Assembly (NCBI GenBank): GCA_963730935.1
Contig: CAVSTP010000004.1
Location: 384,001 to 448,000, forward strand
Origin: an uncultured Nitrospiraceae bacterium
GTDB taxonomy: Bacteria; Nitrospirota; Nitrospiria; Nitrospirales; Nitrospiraceae
Direction: 5' to 3'
Length of the DNA: 64,000 bases
Part shown: piece by piece, positions 741-47,985 of the stretch
How the letters are laid out: every line of letters starts with the position of its first letter
How positions within the stretch are numbered: the first letter of the stretch is position 1
Translations under genes and position numbers: made by a program
The notes under the pieces: model-generated
What the model saw: only the letters and a program-made list of their open reading frames with translations
What the model was told of the DNA's origin: nothing
Database searches by the model: none

Positions 741-824
741 TTGGAACGTGAACAAGTCCACGATGAGCCGCCTACACATGACCGGGGAACAAGACGAGAA
801 TCATCACATTGGTATGGAGGATGT

Positions 825-1355
825 ATGAAGCGAACAGGGCTTGTTCTTCTGCTCATGGTGGGCACATCCGTCATGTGTGGATTGCCTGCACATGCCGCGC
901 CGGAATTTGCCGTCTCGGTCGCGGGGCAGATTCAAGGGAAGTTTAAGGGCGAGGGGAGGAAGGGATTCGAGGACAAAATCATGGGGCTGAGCTTCGATCA
1001 GGAGGTGGTCAGTCCACGTGATGTGATCACCGGACAGGCCATTAACAAGCGTTCCCACAAACTCATCAAAATTAAGAAGGTCTGGGGGCCGGCGTCCCTG
1101 CAATTCGTGGCCGCCGTCACAAAGAATGAATTACTTACAGTGGTGATGGACTTCTTCGTCACCGATCAGAGCGGCATGGCCGTTCTGGACCATACCGTCA
1201 AATTGACTAACGCATCCGTTGCATCCTACAAGACAAGTTCCGACGTGAGCACCACGGCTCCACAAACCGATACCATCGAGTTCGTTTTTCAGCAGATCGA
1301 GATCACCGATCACCGCGGGAAGGGCGCTCTCATCGATAACTGGATCGCACCGTAG
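825..1355 (+). CDS. hcp: Hcp/TssD-family tube protein with N-terminal Sec-type signal peptide
   Basis: GGAGG RBS before ATG 825; leader ending AHA; Hcp hallmarks GQIQGKFKGE, EDKI..SFDQEVVSPRD..TGQ..KRSHK, TVKLTNASV, IEFVFQQIEI. Confidence 0.85.
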   Translation: MKRTGLVLLLMVGTSVMCGLPAHAAPEFAVSVAGQIQGKFKGEGRKGFEDKIMGLSFDQEVVSPRDVITGQAINKRSHKLIKIKKVWGPASLQFVAAVTKNELLTVVMDFFVTDQSGMAVLDHTVKLTNASVASYKTSSDVSTTAPQTDTIEFVFQQIEITDHRGKGALIDNWIAP

Positions 1356-2370: not shown

Positions 2371-2425
2371 CGAAGGGGCCGCATCGTCGATTGATTTGAG
2401 GGTACTGCGATCACAGGAGGCATTC

Positions 2426-4483
2426 ATGCGTCCAGTTCTGAGCTATGTTTGCTTGTCAATGTTGTTGATTCCCGGCATCGCGCTTGCCGGTGCGAACCCG
2501 GTCGTGGACGCCTTAGCGGCCGGGACAGTCGTGCAATTTTCCGGGAAGGAAGCCGTGTCCCAGGCGTACGAGTTCGATGTCATGGTTGCAACCAGCGACA
2601 AGAATCTTAGTCTGTCCTTGGCCCTGGGGCAGCCCATCGCAGTTCCCGTGGCCGCCGGGCGGGCGATTGTTGGAATGATCGAGCGGATCGAGCAGATCGA
2701 TGGGGCGGCGGCGCAGGGCTTGTATCGTCTCCGGATTGTCTCGGGCATGAACCGCCTGAAATATCGGAGCGCGAATCGCACGTTCTATCTCAAAAAAGTC
2801 AGCGACATTGTTCAGCAGGTCCTCAAGGACGCGGGCATCTCGAATGTGGAATTCCGCCTGGCCGGTTCCACAGAGGCCGAAGAGATGACCATGCAGTACC
2901 AGGAATCGGATTTTGCTTTCGTGTCCCGCCTCCTGGAGGGCGCAGGCATCCACTATCACATCGAGCCGACACCGGCCGGCGACAAGGTGGTCTTCAGTGA
3001 TACGAATACCGCCTTCCCGCCTTCGCCTGCCGGAAAAATTGTCTTTGCCGTCAGCAGCTCGCCTTCAGTGAATTCCTTCACGCGCGGTGTGTCCCTCCAT
3101 TCGGGCCAGATTCAGGTCGGCGATTACAATTGGCAGACTCCCGAGACGAATCTGACGTCCACGACCCAGGGCCCGGCCTTCGTGGATCTCACGGAGGGAG
3201 TATTCCCCGGCAGGGTCGAGACGGCAGCCGAATCCCAGGCGGTGGGCAATCTCCGTCTTGGCGCGCGCATCGCCGATGCGCAGGCGTGTGCCGGAGAGTC
3301 CACCTATCCGCAGCTTCAGGCCGGGCAGCGCGTGGTGTTGGGCAATCATCCGCGCGCGGATTTCAATCAGGAGTATGTCATCACGGCGGTCGAGCATCAG
3401 CGAACGGGCAAAGACTACCGCAATTCATTCCGTTGTCTGCCTGCCCAGGTGGCCTTTCGGCCGCTCCTCGCCACAGCGATTCCGGTCATCGGGGGGCTCG
3501 TGCCGGCGATCGTCACAGGGCCGGCAGGGGAAACCAAATTCGTGGACAAATACGGCCGAGTCAAGGTGCGGTTTCCTTGGAGAGCTGCGGCGGGAAACGC
3601 TGGAATCGAGGGTGATGCCGGATTCGTGCGCGTCGCTCAAATTGCGACCGGCGCTGGCTCTGCAGCCATGTGGCTGCCGGATGTGGGCGATGAAGTCTTG
3701 GTGGCGTTTGAGCATGGCGATCCCCGCCGTCCGGTCGTCGTGGGCAGCGTCTATAACGCCAAGGACATGCCGCCGGTCGCCTTGCCCGCCAATAAACATC
3801 TTTCGATTTTGCGCCACCAGGGTGCCAACGGCGTCAGAACGGAATTGGTCCATGATGGTACTCCGGGAAATGAACGGATGTTCATCCAGTCAGGTCAAAC
3901 GGCGCTCACACTTGCGAGCGGCGGTGGTACGCAGGTCCCCAGTGCCTTACTCACTTCGGCGGGCGACGTGGTCCAAAAGGCCGGCCGCGTCTTGTCGATG
4001 GATGCGGGGACTGATCTGGTGGTCAAAACAGCTCAATCCCTTTCGGTCACCAGCCAGAAAGATGCTGTGGTCACCGTTGCGGGGAATACGAACTTCACGA
4101 CGGGTGTCGCTCTGAAGGCCACGGTGGGAGCCGACGCCCAAGTGACCGTCGGAGGGAACGCTGTCGTCGACAGCGCAAAGGATTTCTCTATTCGGACGGG
4201 ACAAAACTTCCTCTTACAGAGCGCGAAGATGGCGCGGTTCACAGTGGGGGAGGACGCCTTCTTTCAAACCGCAAGATCCTTTGTCACGAATTCTGGAGCG
4301 ATGTTCCAATTTGTGGCGGGAGAAACAGGAACGTTCAAGGTCGGCGACGCCTCGTTCTTGAGCAGGAAGGACGGAACGATCAATCTGACTGGGAAGGACA
4401 TCGCGATTGTGGGCAACGGGACGACGACAGTGAGAGCCAGCGGCGATCTCATCCTAAAAGGATCCAAGATCAACCAGAATTAG
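2426..4483 (+). CDS. vgrG: VgrG/TssI-family spike protein with N-terminal Sec-type signal peptide
   Basis: AGGAGG RBS; leader ending IALA; motifs FSGKEAVSQAYEF, QYQESDFAFVSRLLE..GIHY, DKYGRVKVRFPW, PDVGDEVLVAFEHGDPRRPVVVGSVYN; beta-helix C-terminus ending LKGSKINQN. Confidence 0.92.
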   Translation: MRPVLSYVCLSMLLIPGIALAGANPVVDALAAGTVVQFSGKEAVSQAYEFDVMVATSDKNLSLSLALGQPIAVPVAAGRAIVGMIERIEQIDGAAAQGLYRLRIVSGMNRLKYRSANRTFYLKKVSDIVQQVLKDAGISNVEFRLAGSTEAEEMTMQYQESDFAFVSRLLEGAGIHYHIEPTPAGDKVVFSDTNTAFPPSPAGKIVFAVSSSPSVNSFTRGVSLHSGQIQVGDYNWQTPETNLTSTTQGPAFVDLTEGVFPGRVETAAESQAVGNLRLGARIADAQACAGESTYPQLQAGQRVVLGNHPRADFNQEYVITAVEHQRTGKDYRNSFRCLPAQVAFRPLLATAIPVIGGLVPAIVTGPAGETKFVDKYGRVKVRFPWRAAAGNAGIEGDAGFVRVAQIATGAGSAAMWLPDVGDEVLVAFEHGDPRRPVVVGSVYNAKDMPPVALPANKHLSILRHQGANGVRTELVHDGTPGNERMFIQSGQTALTLASGGGTQVPSALLTSAGDVVQKAGRVLSMDAGTDLVVKTAQSLSVTSQKDAVVTVAGNTNFTTGVALKATVGADAQVTVGGNAVVDSAKDFSIRTGQNFLLQSAKMARFTVGEDAFFQTARSFVTNSGAMFQFVAGETGTFKVGDASFLSRKDGTINLTGKDIAIVGNGTTTVRASGDLILKGSKINQN

Positions 4484-4504: not shown

Positions 4505-5062
4505 TTAGAACGCTTGGTTTTTCGCCAAATCCCATCCGCCCACCGAAGGCGATTGCTGCACTGGTTGTCCTGTGGCTGGATTGAATTTGAACGCCGTCCA
4601 ACGAATACGGCTGTAGCTGAGCTTCACTTCTTCAGTAGGTACCTCACCCTGTGAACGTCCTGCAGTGGAATACGCTGCCACTCTGACATCGAACAGTTCC
4701 AGTTTGAGAAAGACGTGAGAGGTGGCACCGGTGGTTTTTACAATTTCCACCACTGCAGTGGAAAACGGTAGACCGCTGGCTGCGGCCATGGCCAAGGCCG
4801 GCGAAATGGAATCCGTGAGCTTGACAATCGCCAAGGGTTGGAACAGGACTTTCGCCGTACCGGGTGGAACGCCCAGAGCGCTGGGCAATCCAAGTGCCGA
4901 ACTGTAGGAACTAATGTTTGTCCAATTCGTCCGACCAGGAAAAGTCGATTCTCCCTGTAAACCCTGAATCAGCAAGAACCCGTCTACCGCGCCAAAACTC
5001 ACTTGAACAGCAACGAATGACCATACTATTGTGCAAACGAGAGTGAGCAATGCTCTCTTCAT
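4505..5062 (-). CDS. hcp: Hcp1-type tube protein with N-terminal signal peptide
   Basis: GGAGGGG RBS; leader MKRALLTLVCTIVWSFVAVQVSFG; DGFLLIQGLQGES, IVKLTDSISPALAMAAASG, PTEEVKLSYSRIRW, GWDLAKNQ. Confidence 0.88.
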   Translation of the reverse strand: MKRALLTLVCTIVWSFVAVQVSFGAVDGFLLIQGLQGESTFPGRTNWTNISSYSSALGLPSALGVPPGTAKVLFQPLAIVKLTDSISPALAMAAASGLPFSTAVVEIVKTTGATSHVFLKLELFDVRVAAYSTAGRSQGEVPTEEVKLSYSRIRWTAFKFNPATGQPVQQSPSVGGWDLAKNQAF

Positions 5063-5134
5063 GACCGTCCCCTCCATCAGTTCGTGATGTTTCCTATCGC
5101 CGGGCAGTCGTCGGTGTCGATCCAGAGAACCTCT

Positions 5135-9994: not shown

Positions 9995-11017
9995 TCACGC
10001 GACTTTGCCTGGAGTCAACGTAATCTGCTCGCAGTACATCTCGACCTTGACGCGCCTGATGGTGTCGCTGGCGCTTGTTGCCCTGTCAGGAGAGAATCCG
10101 AAAATCCCCAGGTGCTGGAACGTCACGGTCAGGAGTGTGCCTTTCATGGTTGGATCCAGAAGTTCCAACGTCCCGACTCGCTCGTTTTGCTCTCCGGAAT
10201 TGCCTTTGAGCACCATATCTTGGAACCAGGAGTAAAACGTACCGGCTGATGCTTCACCGACATAGAGACTCAGGTTCGGAAACTCCAGCTTGCCGGGTTC
10301 CTTGACAAAATCACGTATTTGGCCAAGAGGATCCTGCACGACCTTCTGCTTGATCGTGAAGGCGTCGATCTTGCTGACTCTGCTACAGTCGAGGCCTGGA
10401 ATCGTCAGTTTGAAATTCGCCGTCAGCCAGCCTTTCGTTCTCTTGGCGAGCAACCCGGACACATCGTTCCCTTTGCCCGACAGCAGTGTCGTAAATTCCG
10501 GAGCGAATTTCACGGTGAGATGTCCGGGGTCTTTCGAACTAGCATCGAAGGCCGGAAAGGCGATTTCGGAGATCACGGCGTTGTTGAACTGCAACCGGCT
10601 TTGCTCCTTGCGATTGAAGTCCGCGGTAATAAGTGCGCCGGTTTTTCTTAATGGAGTCATGTTGAGCGCGCTGTTCACCCAATCGAAAAGCGGTTTGGGC
10701 ATGACGGGATCGCACTCGATGGCGATCTCCTCGAACCTTGGCTGACCGATGTGTTTTTTGACGAAAGGTGCTGTCGGCTCAGCGATCACATCGGCTTTTG
10801 GAAAGCCACCCTCGGCCGCGTTCAGCGTCTCGACGATCTGTCCGTCGAGTTCGAGCAGGAACCCTCCGACGGCATAGTTGCGCTGCAGGGCCGCGTGGGT
10901 GAGCCCAGGCCTGAGACCGGGAATTCCGAAAACCGCCATGCCGCCCGCCAAGAGCCCTGCACGAGTCAAGAATTCCCGGCGCGAAGGCGGACCGTCTTGC
11001 GATTGCCCGTTATCCAT
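9995..11017 (-). CDS. Phage tail-tube (T4 gp19/eCIS tube-like) protein, two tandem domains, with Tat signal
   Basis: SRREFL twin-arginine leader; domain 1 FLLELDG..KKHIGQPRFEEI..LFDWV..RKTGALI; domain 2 NFKLTIPG..KEPGKLEFPNLSL..FYSWF..ERVGTLELLD. Confidence 0.8.
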   Translation of the reverse strand: MDNGQSQDGPPSRREFLTRAGLLAGGMAVFGIPGLRPGLTHAALQRNYAVGGFLLELDGQIVETLNAAEGGFPKADVIAEPTAPFVKKHIGQPRFEEIAIECDPVMPKPLFDWVNSALNMTPLRKTGALITADFNRKEQSRLQFNNAVISEIAFPAFDASSKDPGHLTVKFAPEFTTLLSGKGNDVSGLLAKRTKGWLTANFKLTIPGLDCSRVSKIDAFTIKQKVVQDPLGQIRDFVKEPGKLEFPNLSLYVGEASAGTFYSWFQDMVLKGNSGEQNERVGTLELLDPTMKGTLLTVTFQHLGIFGFSPDRATSASDTIRRVKVEMYCEQITLTPGKVA

Positions 11018-19333: not shown

Positions 19334-19664
19334 GTCACTTGCCTTCCTTCTCTGAGGATGTCGGCGTCTGCCATCGGACCCTTATCGCCTTGCGGTGGAT
19401 CGTTTCTGTGGAGTCTGTCGACGGGATGAGAGAAAGGGTTCACGGGAGAAGAAAGCGATTCGGAGTAAGGATAAGGAAAAGAGAGTTGAACTGACGGCCT
19501 TGCGCTCACGGACAACCTCCTGGCTGCCAATACGGACGACCGCAGTTGCTATTGCTGGGGGAGGAAGAATACGGTAGGGAATCGGCCTAGGTCAACACTT
19601 GTGAGCAGGTCTAAAATGTTTAGCCGGCTTCCTCATGCCGATCCGAGACCTCGAAACAGACTAT

Positions 19665-22464: not shown

Positions 22465-22744
22465 GGCAAGAAAACCTTCCTCCCGGACCAGTCAAGCTAT
22501 GGCCGGGCTCCAGAACAATGGCCTATCAGTGGGTCGTCCGAACGCTCGAAGAGGTTCATAAAATAGAGGCGGGTGTAGGATCTAACAATGCGACGCACGC
22601 TGAGCAGGATTGCAGAGCTGGGAACTACACCATGGGGATCGACCATGATTCGACCACGTCCCTATGAAGAGACCGGTGTGAAGCAGGGGTGGACAGGCTA
22701 CGAATTTCTCCCATATAAGTCAATGCCAATTGAGCCAAAAGGAT

Positions 22745-27946: not shown

Positions 27947-28325
27947 TTACTGAGCCCTTAGGCAACTACACTCGACGCCGCTCGTCGTGTCGCAGACCGC
28001 ACTGCTCCCGCAGACACTTGAGGAAAACATGTTCTCACAACGGCGTCGCCTCGACAGGTGCAGGAAGATGTTCAGGAAAAATGCATATGCCGCCTTTGGG
28101 CGGGAGCGGAGTGCGTGGTCCCTGATATCGTGGGACTTTCATAAAGCCCGACTTTTGCATAGGCTTGGTCTGCATTGACAGGCCGCGAACCTGCATCGAT
28201 TGGTCAGACGAAGGCGGCGGAGCGGTCGGGTCGTCCGCCCATACCGAGGCAGTCCCGTTAATCAGAAGAGCCATCGTAAATACAGCGAAACCAAATACTC
28301 CAATGTTCATCTCGGAACGTTTCAT
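27947..28325 (-). pseudogene. Secreted Cys-rich protein with probable double frameshift near 28040-28065
   Basis: GGGAGG RBS, signal peptide, MQVRGL tag; alternative frames give CTCRGDA then CENMFSSSVCGSSAVCDTTSGVECSCLRAQ*. Confidence 0.55.
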
Positions 28326-28436
28326 ACATCCCTCCCGTGGGTTTCATAAAAGTTGCTGACTGGTTGTTCCAAGAGATGATATTTCTCCCTATTCTCCGAT
28401 GATGGGTCGGCGACACATTAGCCGGTGTTACTTTCT

Positions 28437-29190
28437 TCAACTCGCTCGCGCAATCAGCTCTTTCAGTCCCTTTAGATCCAGGCGCTCCTGGTTGCAGTTC
28501 GGTTCCGACTATGAATCCCGGTGTGCCGTTGATGCCGAGCTCCTTGGCCAGCGCGCGATTACGATCGATGACCATCTGCCACTCCGAGTTCGCCATGTCG
28601 GCTTCGAGTCGTTTGGTGTCAAGCCCGACCTCGGTCGCGACGCGCAGCACTTCTTCCTTTGTCATCTCGTTCTTGCTGGCGAGCAGCGCTTCATGAAACT
28701 GTTGATGTTTGCCTTGTGCGCGCGACGCCAGAGCGGCTTTCGCGGCAAGTTCGGAGGGCTCGCCGAGAATCGGGAAATCCTTATAGACGACGCGCACTCT
28801 CGAGTCTTCTTTTTGCAGCTGCGTCACGGCTGGTGCTGCTCTCTTGCAGAATCCGCAGCGGTAGTCGAAAAACTCGACGAGAGTGACCTCGCCGTCGGGA
28901 TTCCCGCTTACCGGCGAGCTTGGATCGCGAAGCAGGTCTTGCTGCCGTTTGCCGATGGCCGCCTTCTGCCGCGCCTTTTCCTCCGCCTCCCGCTTAGTCT
29001 CAAGTGCCTGCAGAGATTGCTCGATCACTTCAGGGTGCGAGCGGATGTACTGCTCGATGGCACGTTCCAGTTCCGGTGTGAGCTTCGAGTCAGTCACTGT
29101 CGGTTCGGCCCATACATTGGATGGACTCAGCAGGCATATTGCCGCACAACCTGCAGCTAGTAACCCGCAACCACCTGAGGAAGAGATCAT
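28437..29190 (-). CDS. DsbA-family thiol-disulfide oxidoreductase with a +1 frameshift near the 3' end
   Basis: VEFFDYRCGFCK, YKDFPILG, LGINGTPGF; deleting one base at 28481-28482 gives the natural-looking end PGALDLKGLKELIARAS*. Confidence 0.88.
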
Positions 29191-29227: not shown

Positions 29228-29450
29228 ACGTCTGTCGCCCTGTGTCTTTCAAAGGTTCATGCCAAAAATTGAAGATTCCCGATGCCGTTATGAACCTATT
29301 GGCAGCGCCTCATGACATACAGGATGAGAGGACATTCAGTCCTCCCAGTTCAAAGGAGGCACACCATGTGGATCATCGCCATCGTTTTCCTCCCGCTCAT
29401 CGTCATAGCCCTCACTTCACTTCTGTGCGAGACCTTGGAAAGGGAGTAGG
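29228..29450 (+). repeat. About 220-bp duplicated element, copy 1 (inverted repeat, hairpin, RBS, small hydrophobic ORF)
   Basis: Aligns by eye along its length with 31134..31357. Confidence 0.85.
29366..29449 (+). CDS. 27-aa hydrophobic peptide MWIIAIVFLPLIVIALTSLLCETLERE
   Basis: AAGGAGG RBS; differences from copy 2 are mostly synonymous or conservative. Confidence 0.6.
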   Translation: MWIIAIVFLPLIVIALTSLLCETLERE

Positions 29451-29502
29451 GAGTGCCGACCACTCCTAATTCCCCATCCAATGGGTCGCACCGGGGCTCG
29501 CC

Positions 29503-30467
29503 TCACCGAATCCCTGGCGGAAACACGACACCGATCGATGCTTGCCCCCCCGCAGCTTGACCTAACGGGACAATTTGACCGGCCGGACCGGCCTGACGGA
29601 TTTGCGTGCTCATCTGTTGGATGACGTTTTCGAATTCCAGGCTGAACTCCGTCGTAAACGTTTGGCAGGTAATGATCACGCAGCCGACAAAGCTACCCTT
29701 TTCATGCTTGCAGTCGGGATCATAAGGACAGGCGTCGTCAGCGTTACGGGTCCCATCGCCATCGCAATCTCCGTCCGGCCCTTTATCCTGGCAATTGTCC
29801 CTCGTTGTCTTTTGCTGTTGTTCGTTCTTGTGGTTCTGCCACCAGGCCGCTATCCAGTTCCAGGCATCTTGGAAAAAGCCCCAAACGGTAAACACGTTAG
29901 TCCCGAAAGGCTGTGGGCCGGCCAATCGAGTCCGGAGCACGTACACGAAGCGCATCCAGTCCCACCATGCGCATGACATCTGCTCTCGGTATCTGAATGA
30001 CATCGGCGAACTGATTCGGCGTAAACACCATCGCGACATCCGTTCTGCCCGCTATTACGGAATCGAGAGTTTGAAGACCGCCGGGCGTGTTCCGCAGCGT
30101 ATTTGCGAGAGATGCGCGCACGGGAGCCTGCGAGTACACGACGGATATATCAACGGGGGTGATCCAATACCCGTTGACGAATGCAATCGGTGGGATGGTG
30201 CGTAGTTGGCGGCGAATCTCGCGCGTCGACCGCGCTGCGTACAACCGGCTGGTTCAGGGCGGCACGGTACGCCGACATGACCTGAGGTGATGGTGGGGGA
30301 ACTCGAGAAGTGCCGGAGGGACGACCTGGAAATTGCGGCACCGCCCGCTCTTCGATGCCTCCTTGCTTCGAGGTGTCGTCCGCCTGCACAAATGTGGCTT
30401 CCATATTGAACATCACTAAGCCACAAATGAAGAAGCCTGCCCAACGAACACTGTCGACCGTATTCAT
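29503..30467 (-). pseudogene. Secreted protein with TSP3-like Ca-binding motif, split by two +1 frameshifts
   Basis: GGAGGG RBS, signal peptide, GIEERAV tag; single extra bases near 30220 and 29920 separate three consecutive frames; DCDGDGTRNADDACP motif. Confidence 0.65.
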
Positions 30468-30523
30468 AATCGCCCTCCAGTCATCCGCGTGTCTCCCCCG
30501 TGCATTGCCGTAGCGGCCGCCGC

Positions 30524-31084
30524 TTAGTGCGGACCCAACACCTTTCTGATCTTATTGTTGGCGCTATTGAGTTCTGCACAATTGTTGGGAGGGTTGCAAA
30601 TGATAGTGACTTCGACAATGACTGTCTCTGCCGCGGTAAACTTTGGGTCGACTTTGAATTTCTTCGATTGATCGGGCGCGAGCGGAGCCACAGTTCGCTG
30701 ATCCCTGATCGTGCAATTGTTGTTCGCAATGCACTGGCTTGGATTGGGCGGTGTGCTCAGAGGGTTGTACCGCATACCTAACGTCAGAACCTGTACGGAT
30801 GGCATCGGCACGTTACCCTTGTTTACGATCTTGATCTCCGCCTTGTACTGGGCATGCAAGACATCGAGCCATTCTTGATCGATGGAGGCTGTCACATCCG
30901 GCAGAGGGAAGTGTTGTGGAACAGGCAGGCCTCTTTTCTCAACCTGTCCCTCTTGGCTGTTCGGTTCGGTGTTGGCCGGTTGGTCTTGAGCTAACAGAGA
31001 AGCAGTCGTCCAGCACGGAAATACTGCTAGCGCACACAGTGAGAGTATCAACGATAGCCTGCTCCACCGCGGGGCTAGGTGCAT
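30524..31084 (-). CDS. Secreted CARDB-like Ig domain protein
   Basis: AAGGAG RBS; signal peptide; QVEKRGL tag; LPDV, IVNKGN, PLAPDQS, ELNSANN motifs. Confidence 0.75.
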   Translation of the reverse strand: MHLAPRWSRLSLILSLCALAVFPCWTTASLLAQDQPANTEPNSQEGQVEKRGLPVPQHFPLPDVTASIDQEWLDVLHAQYKAEIKIVNKGNVPMPSVQVLTLGMRYNPLSTPPNPSQCIANNNCTIRDQRTVAPLAPDQSKKFKVDPKFTAAETVIVEVTIICNPPNNCAELNSANNKIRKVLGPH

Positions 31085-31133
31085 GTCGGTCTCTCCTTAT
31101 CCTTAGGAGCTTCGTCAGGTGGAATCTTTTGGT

Positions 31134-31357
31134 ACGTCTGTCGTCCTGTATCCTTCAAAGGTTCATGCCCAAAAATCGAAGGGATCATACACCTGCATGA
31201 ACCTTTGAGTGGCGCCTCGTGACCTACCGACGAGAGGACATTCAGTCCTCCCCGGCTCAAAGGAGGCAGATCATGTGGGTCATCGCCATCGTTTTCGTCC
31301 CGCTCATCCTCATCGCCGTCAGCTCGCTGGTGTGCGAGTCCTGGGAGTGAGAGTAGG
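31134..31357 (+). repeat. About 220-bp duplicated element, copy 2
   Basis: Perfect 14-bp inverted repeat TCAAAGGTTCATGC (31155-31168) / GCATGAACCTTTGA (31195-31208); GAGGAC-ATTCA-GTCCTC hairpin; AAGGAGG. Confidence 0.85.
31273..31350 (+). CDS. 25-aa hydrophobic peptide MWVIAIVFVPLILIAVSSLVCESWE
   Basis: AAGGAGG RBS; paralogue of 29366..29449. Confidence 0.6.
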   Translation: MWVIAIVFVPLILIAVSSLVCESWE

Positions 31358-31358
31358 A

Positions 31359-31988
31359 TTATTTCCCTCCCGTACGCACTCCATCCGCCCAACTCCGTGC
31401 CGCCTTGGCATCCGTGGGAGCCGGTTTCGTGCATTTCTTCCCCCGCACTCCATAGCTGATGGTCTCTGTCTTGATCGGGCAGGTGCCGAAGGGGGTGCCG
31501 AATTGGACGACTCCCTCAATGACGGTCAGAATGCTTTGCCCGTCGTTCTGCACCTTCAAATTGAACTCAGTTTCCTTTACAGATGCGGTTGCCACAGGCG
31601 TTTCCACTTCAAACCGCTTGGGTCCGCCGGCGGTTTTTGCCCACACCTCGCCCTGCGATAGTCGGAGAATCCGTGTCATGGGCTTGCCCTTTTCCCATCG
31701 AGAGATCAGCTTGAACGTGGTGCTTTCGTTCAAGGCGACCTGAATGCCTTCCTGAAACTCGATGAGGGCCTGGCTGCTCTCATCCGTCTTGAGCACGTCG
31801 CCCTCGTACAATGGCACATTGCCCTTTCCTTGAAGACGTTGCTGCACGCCGTCGGTTCGAACGATCGTCAGCGTACCGATCGCATTGGTCGCTGCACCGA
31901 GGGGAGTATTCTGGGCGATGGCAGTGCCGGTTACCGCAACGCAAAAGGTCATCAGAGCTGCGATGATGTTCCATGGATTCGATGTCAT
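31359..31988 (-). CDS. Secreted FecR-domain protein
   Basis: AAGGAG RBS; signal peptide; LYEGDVLKT..SQALIEF, LRLSQGEVW, FEVETPVATASVKETEF, LTVIEGVV. Confidence 0.85.
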   Translation of the reverse strand: MTSNPWNIIAALMTFCVAVTGTAIAQNTPLGAATNAIGTLTIVRTDGVQQRLQGKGNVPLYEGDVLKTDESSQALIEFQEGIQVALNESTTFKLISRWEKGKPMTRILRLSQGEVWAKTAGGPKRFEVETPVATASVKETEFNLKVQNDGQSILTVIEGVVQFGTPFGTCPIKTETISYGVRGKKCTKPAPTDAKAARSWADGVRTGGK

Positions 31989-36197: not shown

Positions 36198-36452
36198 CGT
36201 GTTCTCCTCGGCCTACGAGGAGAACACCAGCCAACGTCTATGTATCAATCAACGAATGCAAATCCTTTAAGCATTGTCAAATTGCTACTTCTCGTATTTC
36301 CGGTCGAAAGTTGCCCGCGCTGCCCAGCCACGCGTGTGTCGAGCAACTATTACGTAAGGTTCAACCGCTGGGAGCGCAAGTCTATTGATGGGGGTATGAA
36401 GAAGTCAACGAAGCGGCTGGTTCACCATACAAAAGAGGGGGATAAAAACCAT

Positions 36453-47908: not shown

Positions 47909-47985
<77 letters not shown>

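Follow-up and report, generated by a model that had tools for sequence, protein, structure and literature searches.

What does a duplicated element with an inverted repeat, a hairpin and a tiny hydrophobic reading frame do: does it make a toxin, act as an RNA switch, or serve another purpose? This question is raised by a 64,000-nt stretch of DNA (hereafter the window) from an uncultured Nitrospiraceae bacterium (assembly GCA_963730935.1, contig CAVSTP010000004.1, positions 384,001 to 448,000), in which the element lies at window positions 29228-29451 and 31134-31357. A first-pass annotation had read each copy as a structured leader of about 220 bp followed by a type I toxin-like or regulatory peptide. 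From sequence comparison, we consider it likely that the element is a back-to-back promoter cassette of a stress-type sigma factor (extracytoplasmic function, ECF), serving an exported-protein gene on one strand and a conserved membrane peptide on the other, within a variable island. In the following, G000 denotes the source genome, and G001, G006, G041, G046 and G047 are other genomes with the element or the peptide.

The inverted repeat and its probable promoter motifs

The two copies are ~80% identical across 225 nt, and blastn and nhmmer found only these two in the whole 4.05-Mb genome (next nhmmer match, E=0.058), which answers the genome-wide copy search proposed in the first-pass annotation. 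The inverted repeat was also found as that annotation had described it, perfect over 14 bp in copy 2, and is shorter and imperfect in copy 1. This repeat does not appear to be the body of a 220-bp leader. It is made of two copies of a bipartite, asymmetric motif, TGAACC-N16-(C/T/A)GACnnAC, one per strand and oriented toward start codons, and its perfect arms in copy 2 are two -35 boxes with their flanks, set back to back. The spacer was 16 nt in all 12 half-sites when 15-18 nt were allowed. Arm-to-arm pairing occurs at 131 of 153 box positions versus 49 of 117 spacer positions, the latter being near chance (nine of ten copies counted, since no opposite -35 lies within 60 nt in G001; in G006 the opposite -10 is degenerate). 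Sequence identity across six lineages is high in both boxes (-35, 0.81; -10, 0.82) and lower in the leader (0.61), the open reading frame (ORF; 0.58), the spacer (0.44) and the 3' flank (0.25). Nine of ten leaders have their start codon 43-45 nt past the -10 box (the tenth, 51 nt), implying that only ~40 nt of leader would be transcribed.

Genome-wide counts of the motif were highest at a spacer of 16 nt (19 versus 4-10 at other spacers), and a matrix built from 12 sites of other genomes gave 16 matches at this spacer versus 0-5 otherwise. All 13 matrix sites scoring at least 23 (33 are listed at a score of at least 15) are non-coding, compared with a baseline of 25%, and 11 of them fall within C4:365-421 kb, although four of the 13 belong to the element itself, where homology accounts for the match. 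Within the window, seven strict motif sites were found versus 0.03 expected. The elements and their surroundings are as follows, with the stand-alone motif sites at the end:

28258..29190, minus strand: DsbA-like thioredoxin-fold gene with an apparent signal peptide; 3' end possibly frameshifted
29230..29259, minus strand: ECF-type promoter motif of the DsbA-like gene, TGAACC-N16-CGACAGAC, aimed at the ATG at 29190
29291..29320, plus strand: ECF-type promoter motif of peptide 1, TGAACC-N16-TGACATAC
29328..29344, plus strand: 6-bp hairpin with ATTCA loop, copy 1, at about the putative 5' end of the peptide mRNA
29353..29359, plus strand: Shine-Dalgarno (SD) sequence AAGGAGG, copy 1
29366..29449, plus strand: peptide 1 ORF, 27 aa, with a single transmembrane (TM) helix, MWIIAIVFLPLIVIALTSLLCETLERE
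30524..31084, minus strand: gene of a 186-aa apparently exported protein (signal peptide judged by eye), divergent from peptide 2
31136..31165, minus strand: ECF-type promoter motif of the 186-aa gene, TGAACC-N16-CGACAGAC, aimed at the ATG at 31084
31155-31168 and 31195-31208, unstranded: arms of the perfect 14-bp inverted repeat, copy 2
31198..31227, plus strand: ECF-type promoter motif of peptide 2, TGAACC-N16-TGACCTAC
31234..31250, plus strand: 6-bp hairpin with ATTCA loop, copy 2
31260..31266, plus strand: SD sequence AAGGAGG, copy 2
31273..31350, plus strand: peptide 2 ORF, 25 aa, single-TM, MWVIAIVFVPLILIAVSSLVCESWE; TGA at codon 26
31359..31988, minus strand: FecR-domain gene, convergent with peptide 2, its start codon taken from the sequence
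19413..19442, minus strand: stand-alone promoter motif
22529..22558, minus strand: stand-alone promoter motif, 65 nt ahead of a 152-aa lipoprotein-like ORF
36334..36363, minus strand: stand-alone promoter motif, ahead of a WD40-caspase / YncE-like / FecR gene run

The hairpin (GAGGAC-ATTCA-GTCCTC in both copies), the SD sequences and the single-TM ORFs are thus where the first-pass annotation had placed them, and both ORFs are indeed divergent from minus-strand genes, which start at 29190 and 31084. In copy 2 the stop codon of the family, a TAG at 31354-31356, lies two codons past the peptide's own stop, and the FecR gene stop is 2 nt beyond this TAG. The 186-aa protein matched no Pfam family. 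The C-terminus of the DsbA-like ORF departs from its G047 counterpart after residue ~220; a frameshift or an assembly indel may be present in one of them or in both.

Single occurrences before genes also led us to drop an integron attC site or a transposon end (compared with their consensus) as an explanation of the repeat. Outside the island, motif sites occur at G000:C4:526942, 801639 and 826918, each upstream of an apparently exported protein, which suggests that these are outlying members of the regulon. The gaps between the back-to-back -35 boxes (29260-29290 and 31166-31197 in the window, and in homologues) measure 22, 22, 31, 31, 32, 33, 33, 33 and 39 nt; they mostly differ by about one helical turn, and the 39-nt gap contains a short tandem duplication of the box.

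A probable cognate sigma factor resembling ECF33

Among the 12 sigma-domain genes of the genome, the motif adjoins only one, an ECF gene at G000:C4:364483-365064, encoded ~19 kb before the window. It is followed at +1 by a zf-HC2 anti-sigma gene (E 2.4e-7; one TM helix at residues 115-133 by hydropathy) and at +2 by a C14 caspase/DUF4384 gene. Orthologues of this sigma occur in 12 of 33 genomes of the genus and in 47 of 341 of the family. We counted 62 strict motif sites in the 12 genus genomes with the sigma versus 14 in the 21 without it, and 10 for a reversed control in all 33, a comparison in which kin are not independent, the pattern comes from G000 and many genomes are fragmented. When G000 and G047 are left out, 38 sites in 10 genomes are counted. 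The peptide itself was found in six of the 33 genus genomes, all with the sigma (6/12 versus 0/21; Fisher 8e-4), but two of the six were found by a search confined to sigma-bearing genomes, and the four unbiased ones give 0.012 by hand calculation.

The motif has the bipartite -35/-10 form and the fixed 16-nt spacer of an ECF promoter, lies upstream of genes, and both neighbours and co-occurs with an ECF gene; ECF promoters are described with spacers of 16-18 nt (PMC7776599). Its form, spacing and co-occurrence with the sigma are read directly from the genomes, and from them we infer that it is very likely a promoter read by this sigma. In all 12 orthologues (G000:C4:365050-365079, minus strand; L053 and L071-L081) the motif also overlaps the sigma's own ATG at an offset of -15, with its -10 box covering codons 3-5. 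A transcript from this site would lack the sigma start yet carry the anti-sigma, and the site may therefore be an internal promoter for an anti-sigma-only mRNA or, alternatively, a self-repression site.

Judged by its promoter form and gene neighbours, the sigma appears to be ECF33-like. Members of the ECF33 group (the EcfQ class) are described with a -35 of TGAACCTTT and a variable -10 in which AC persists; their anti-sigma has a zinc finger and one TM helix, and some subgroups have a subtilase gene at +2 (Casas-Pastor et al. 2021, PMC7826278). The -35, the AC in the -10, the one-TM anti-sigma at +1 and a protease gene at +2 are all found here. TGAACC-type -35 boxes are shared by ECF17 and ECF209 (PMC7826278), so this box is not enough to assign the group. 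The main text of the EcfQ paper, as far as available, contains no 'GAAC' and gives the ecfQ promoter as GCAGAC/TAACAAT, so the TGAACC promoter that the classification of Casas-Pastor et al. attributes to it is not confirmed there; further ECF33 promoter sequences that bear on the assignment are in PMC3420878, PMC10880074, PMC7776599 and bioRxiv 10.64898/2026.09.15.751809. The best NCBIfam match of the sigma was PRK12515, at 165 bits against a cut-off of 236. The closest plasmid-borne relatives, from Methylocapsa and Sphingomonas, are 39-41% identical; the two have TGAACC-N16-CGACTAAC or TGAACC-N16-CCACTAAG upstream and an anti-sigma-like (zf-HC2) gene at +1 and/or an S8 protease nearby. Unlike ECF33, which is described as 100% Proteobacteria (PMC7826278), the present sigma has a Nitrospiraceae host, a C14 caspase/DUF4384 gene rather than a subtilase at +2, a regulon that forms a large variable island of exported proteins, and a motif site over its own ATG; moreover, the available part of PMC7826278 mentions no small peptide for the group.

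The peptide and the competing explanations

Relatives of the element and the peptide are few. The full element was found by DNA search in one of 370 other genomes of the family (G047, two copies), and an exact-pattern scan found it in four metagenome contigs, three of them identical at the element locus. A peptide profile search added G041 and G046, and the G001 and G006 peptides came to light by position, when 20-kb stretches of six other genomes, all sigma-bearing, were examined for short ORFs following the motif. Profile searching of 1.84 billion representatives gave eight matches, all members of the peptide family, and 11 of 83 candidates from a word-index search were also members. The relatives belong to Nitrospiraceae, one of them (P0007) being named Nitrospira sp. 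Database entries of the family mostly carry wrong upstream starts, examples being P0001, P0003, P0004 and P0007. No family was matched in Pfam (best E 0.13), NCBIfam or PHROG (best E 0.019, to a PHROG of unknown function), the best score in the ESM Atlas, 0.78, is a lead only, and a scan of viral contigs found no relative among 15 candidates, three pattern matches there being judged chance.

Several weaker candidates were set aside. The weak DNA matches L010-L022 were chance, mostly CusA/CzcA-like TM codons as read by eye, and the weak profile matches L033, L034, L040, L042, L044, L087, L092 and L104 were judged chance on reading. L126 and L127 turned out to be helices within longer proteins; they presumably resemble PLDc_N and B. 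subtilis YxlE, a likeness that has no Pfam support and on which the literature held nothing on point. Elsewhere in G000 there are eight further SD-preceded small TM ORFs, among which those at C2:232921 (minus strand) and C3:859578 (plus strand) encode peptides that are alike to each other and unrelated to the 27-aa family.

The aligned copies behave as a protein-coding family. The ORF is exactly 27 codons long in 10 of 11 aligned copies; copy 2 ends at codon 26, and so does an independent metagenome protein, P0002 (25 aa). The ratio of nonsynonymous to synonymous polymorphism (pN/pS) was 0.48-0.49 in the peptide frame (nine copies) against 0.64-2.66 in the other five frames, and fell to 0.36 over codons 2-22, the TM part (seven close copies), while mean differences at codon positions 1, 2 and 3 were 0.41, 0.15 and 0.44 (11 copies). 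Copies as little as 37% identical still share Ala15, the peptide length, the SD and hydrophobic second codon positions. The maximal 19-residue hydropathy is 2.5-3.0, consistent with a single TM helix followed by a polar C-terminus. Ala15 is invariant and positions 5, 10, 17 and 18 are mostly small, which suggests helix packing on a partner. Taken together, the substitution pattern indicates that the peptide is under purifying selection, translation of the ORF is highly probable, and the peptide is probably a conserved single-pass membrane protein family with a strong SD. The first-pass annotation had reasoned that homologues keeping the repeat and losing the ORF would point to a promoter or operator. 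A promoter is indeed what the repeat resembles, but the homologues keep both the promoter motif and the ORF, which implies that both parts are real.

Several observations weigh against a sigma-driven cassette with a functional peptide. A pN/pS near 0.5 indicates only moderate selection; one strain, represented by three identical contigs (L025, L027 and L028; L028:2998-3078, plus strand), has ATA in place of the ATG start; and the copy L026b (L026:1993-2073, plus strand) has neither promoter nor leader. That copy also has two Arg at the end of its helix. The strict motif was derived from G000, so the genome's own count of 13 is circular, and genomes without the sigma still average 0.67 sites versus 0.30 for the reversed control, many of them being fragmented. 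Searches of 41 sigma-bearing genomes, six of the 12 in the genus and 35 of other genera, did not find the peptide, so that it looks like an accessory of one genus; it is either dispensable for the sigma circuit or too diverged to detect. Finally, no specific partner of the peptide is indicated.

Among the competing explanations, a toxin survives best and is nevertheless unlikely: either a type I toxin-antitoxin pair, or a membrane toxin that the ECF sigma induces and that antisense RNA, reading through from the convergent operon, neutralises. The peptide is shorter than 60 aa, with one TM helix, a polar C-terminus and a local duplication, traits that have been used to find type I toxins (PMC2887945) and in which it resembles Ibs, Ldr/Fst, ShoB, ZorO, DinQ and TisB (PMC8309996, PMC2887945). 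With the FecR gene ending 2 nt past copy 2's family stop, antisense overlap is plausible there; full-length folds often pair the SD (unpaired probability 0.14-0.48); and the ATA-start and leaderless copies might be attenuated alleles. However, Pfam, NCBIfam and PHROG scans gave no toxin family match, the 3' flank, where an antitoxin is expected, is unconserved (0.25), and scans for sigma70 promoters and terminators found none at the element or its ORFs. No conserved antitoxin locus was found at the peptide loci in these flanks and scans, and the FecR gene leaves no room for a separate antitoxin gene at copy 2. Flanking genes lie ~180 nt upstream and <60 nt downstream, compared with the search thresholds of >400 and >250 nt for type I toxins (PMC2887945). 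The net charge is 0 to -3 in all nine peptides scored, whereas most type I toxins have cationic C-termini, Fst being a stated exception, and the Fst/Ldr motif APXXXGXXX (PMC8309996) is absent, as no Gly lies four residues after Pro10 and Pro10 itself is missing in four of 11 peptides. The convergent operon probably does yield read-through antisense RNA, but the sigma that drives the peptide would drive this RNA as well, which is a misfit with a constitutive antitoxin. An antisense RNA encoded in trans is also conceivable. The short leader, acidic tail, ECF-type promoter and tight gene packing set the locus further apart from known membrane type I toxins, and the toxin reading of the first-pass annotation is for the most part not borne out.

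It is also quite improbable that the motif is a pair of transcription-factor operators rather than a sigma promoter, with the peptide gene simply co-regulated with its neighbours. A site over the sigma's own start codon would suit repression, and -35 gaps that mostly differ by about one helical turn would fit any pair of DNA-bound proteins. Nevertheless, an asymmetric bipartite site with a 16-nt spacer, oriented toward start codons, matching the published ECF33 -35 and co-occurring with one ECF gene, argues for a promoter.

Less probable still is a riboswitch or other conformational switch, in which refolding of the inverted repeat and the hairpin would mask or free the SD. Six close copies have the hairpin unchanged, as the first-pass annotation had claimed for the two in the window; G006 has a different stem around a similar loop; and all ten leaders carry TTCA 13-15 nt past the -10 box, a feature that the 12 other motif sites listed all lack. 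Folding of a 173-nt region was moderate for copy 2 (z -2.9) and unremarkable for copy 1 (z -1.1). However, the more distant homologues keep the motif, SD and ORF but not the hairpin, which is not the predicted fold in three of ten leaders (G041, G046 and G001). The proposed pairing of its CCTCC with the SD is not favoured by the six lowest-energy folds of W1, W2 and L028, all of which keep the hairpin, sequestering CCTCC rather than the SD, in place of an anti-SD:SD duplex. The element has no Rfam match, the window's one gathering-level match being a tRNA gene at 47909-47982 (plus strand), ~8 kb beyond the island's right end. Covariation, which the first-pass annotation had suggested checking, was not seen: no compensatory pairs appeared on a MAFFT alignment (70% paired, 82 of 500 shuffles as high), a weak result as the alignment was not fitted. 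In addition, the symmetry of the long repeat is limited to the promoter boxes. Of the proposed small-peptide/RNA switch family, the conserved, probably translated peptide family is supported and the switch is not. The simplest reading of the hairpin is a 5'-stabilising stem-loop; a palindromic operator was rejected, its 6-bp form being found only at the two copies.

Equally improbable is that the plus-strand promoter serves chiefly to disturb the upstream minus-strand operon, or to feed antisense RNA into it, the peptide being incidental. In the genomes inspected the peptide gene stands alone on the opposite strand and meets an island gene tail-to-tail, but the persistence of Ala15, the length, the SD and the hydrophobic second codon positions would not then be expected.

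A proposed circuit in a variable island

The cassettes lie in an island at ~C4:361-425 kb (window ~1-41000) that encodes mostly unannotated proteins with apparent signal peptides (by eye), together with C14 caspase-domain proteins (five genes), a trypsin-like protease, Hcp/VgrG/tube-like proteins and the DsbA-like protein. The genes between and beside the element copies vary from genome to genome. Two Hcp-like genes, one VgrG-like and one gp19 tube-like gene (window 741-1355, 2396-4483, 4505-5077 and 9995-11017) have apparent N-terminal export signals (by eye), which is unusual for parts of contractile injection systems.

Circumstantial signs of a possible shared proteolytic step were found in the anti-sigma and the island proteins. 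Arg144 of the anti-sigma (L059:18830-19486, minus strand), just outside its TM helix, is invariant in 11 of 11 sequences, and the motif around it, [DE][VI]xxR[GAS][VILT], occurs near the N-terminus in 10 of 51 island ORFs versus 26 of 3713 elsewhere, with the pattern having been read off the same island genes in which it was counted. A C-terminal RGVE-type motif occurs in four of 53 island ORFs versus four of 3883 elsewhere. Orthocaspases cleave after basic residues (PMC6426788), and shared Arg-specific processing of the anti-sigma and island proteins by the C14 proteases is possible. A complex prediction for anti-sigma residues 92-219 with the peptide family member P0005 (40 aa) scored 0.00 and provides no evidence either way.

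In the model that we propose, the sigma, once freed from its anti-sigma, would switch on the island. Each cassette would then be transcribed both ways, into a minus-strand exported-protein gene and a short peptide mRNA comprising a leader of ~40 nt (with a 5' hairpin in some lineages, followed by the SD) and the 27-aa single-pass membrane peptide, which would thereby join a regulon that comprises proteases and a DsbA-like oxidoreductase along with exported proteins. For the peptide's job, we tentatively favour a membrane-embedded feedback modulator of the sigma/anti-sigma/protease circuit, by analogy and on account of the motif over the sigma ATG, the Arg144 motif of the anti-sigma, the specificity of orthocaspases and the precedent of DimA. 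MgrB-type peptides are small membrane feedback regulators of signalling circuits. DimA of P. aeruginosa is a microprotein that drives anti-sigma proteolysis in AlgW-MucA-AlgU, a cascade of protease, anti-sigma and ECF sigma (PMC12780092). The likeness to both is that of a microprotein made within the circuit it may tune, a parallel by description and not by sequence, the peptide having no family match. An accessory subunit for cargo export or folding is possible but less likely, and a conditionally toxic peptide or some other job is in each case improbable. A fuller circuit is rather doubtful as a whole: exported, Arg-cutting C14 proteases of the orthocaspase type would cleave the anti-sigma at R144 and cargo at the Arg motif, freeing the sigma, which would damp itself through the site at its own ATG; the peptide would be a dedicated membrane feedback regulator, and the cassette, copied within the island, would recruit cargo genes.

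An ECF regulon containing a small membrane protein is of a known kind. We found no description of this peptide or regulon in the literature, as judged from listings, and there appears to be no earlier account of such a host lineage or caspase pairing, of the duplicated bidirectional cassette or of the peptide family. The locus also gives a general caution, in that ECF promoters placed back to back look like an RNA hairpin whose loop varies. An apparent toxin or RNA-switch candidate thus becomes a testable promoter code, which predicts an ECF regulon in relatives of nitrite oxidisers and adds a small-protein family. If the link between the Arg motif, the caspases and the anti-sigma is true, it would provide a concrete signalling substrate for bacterial orthocaspases.

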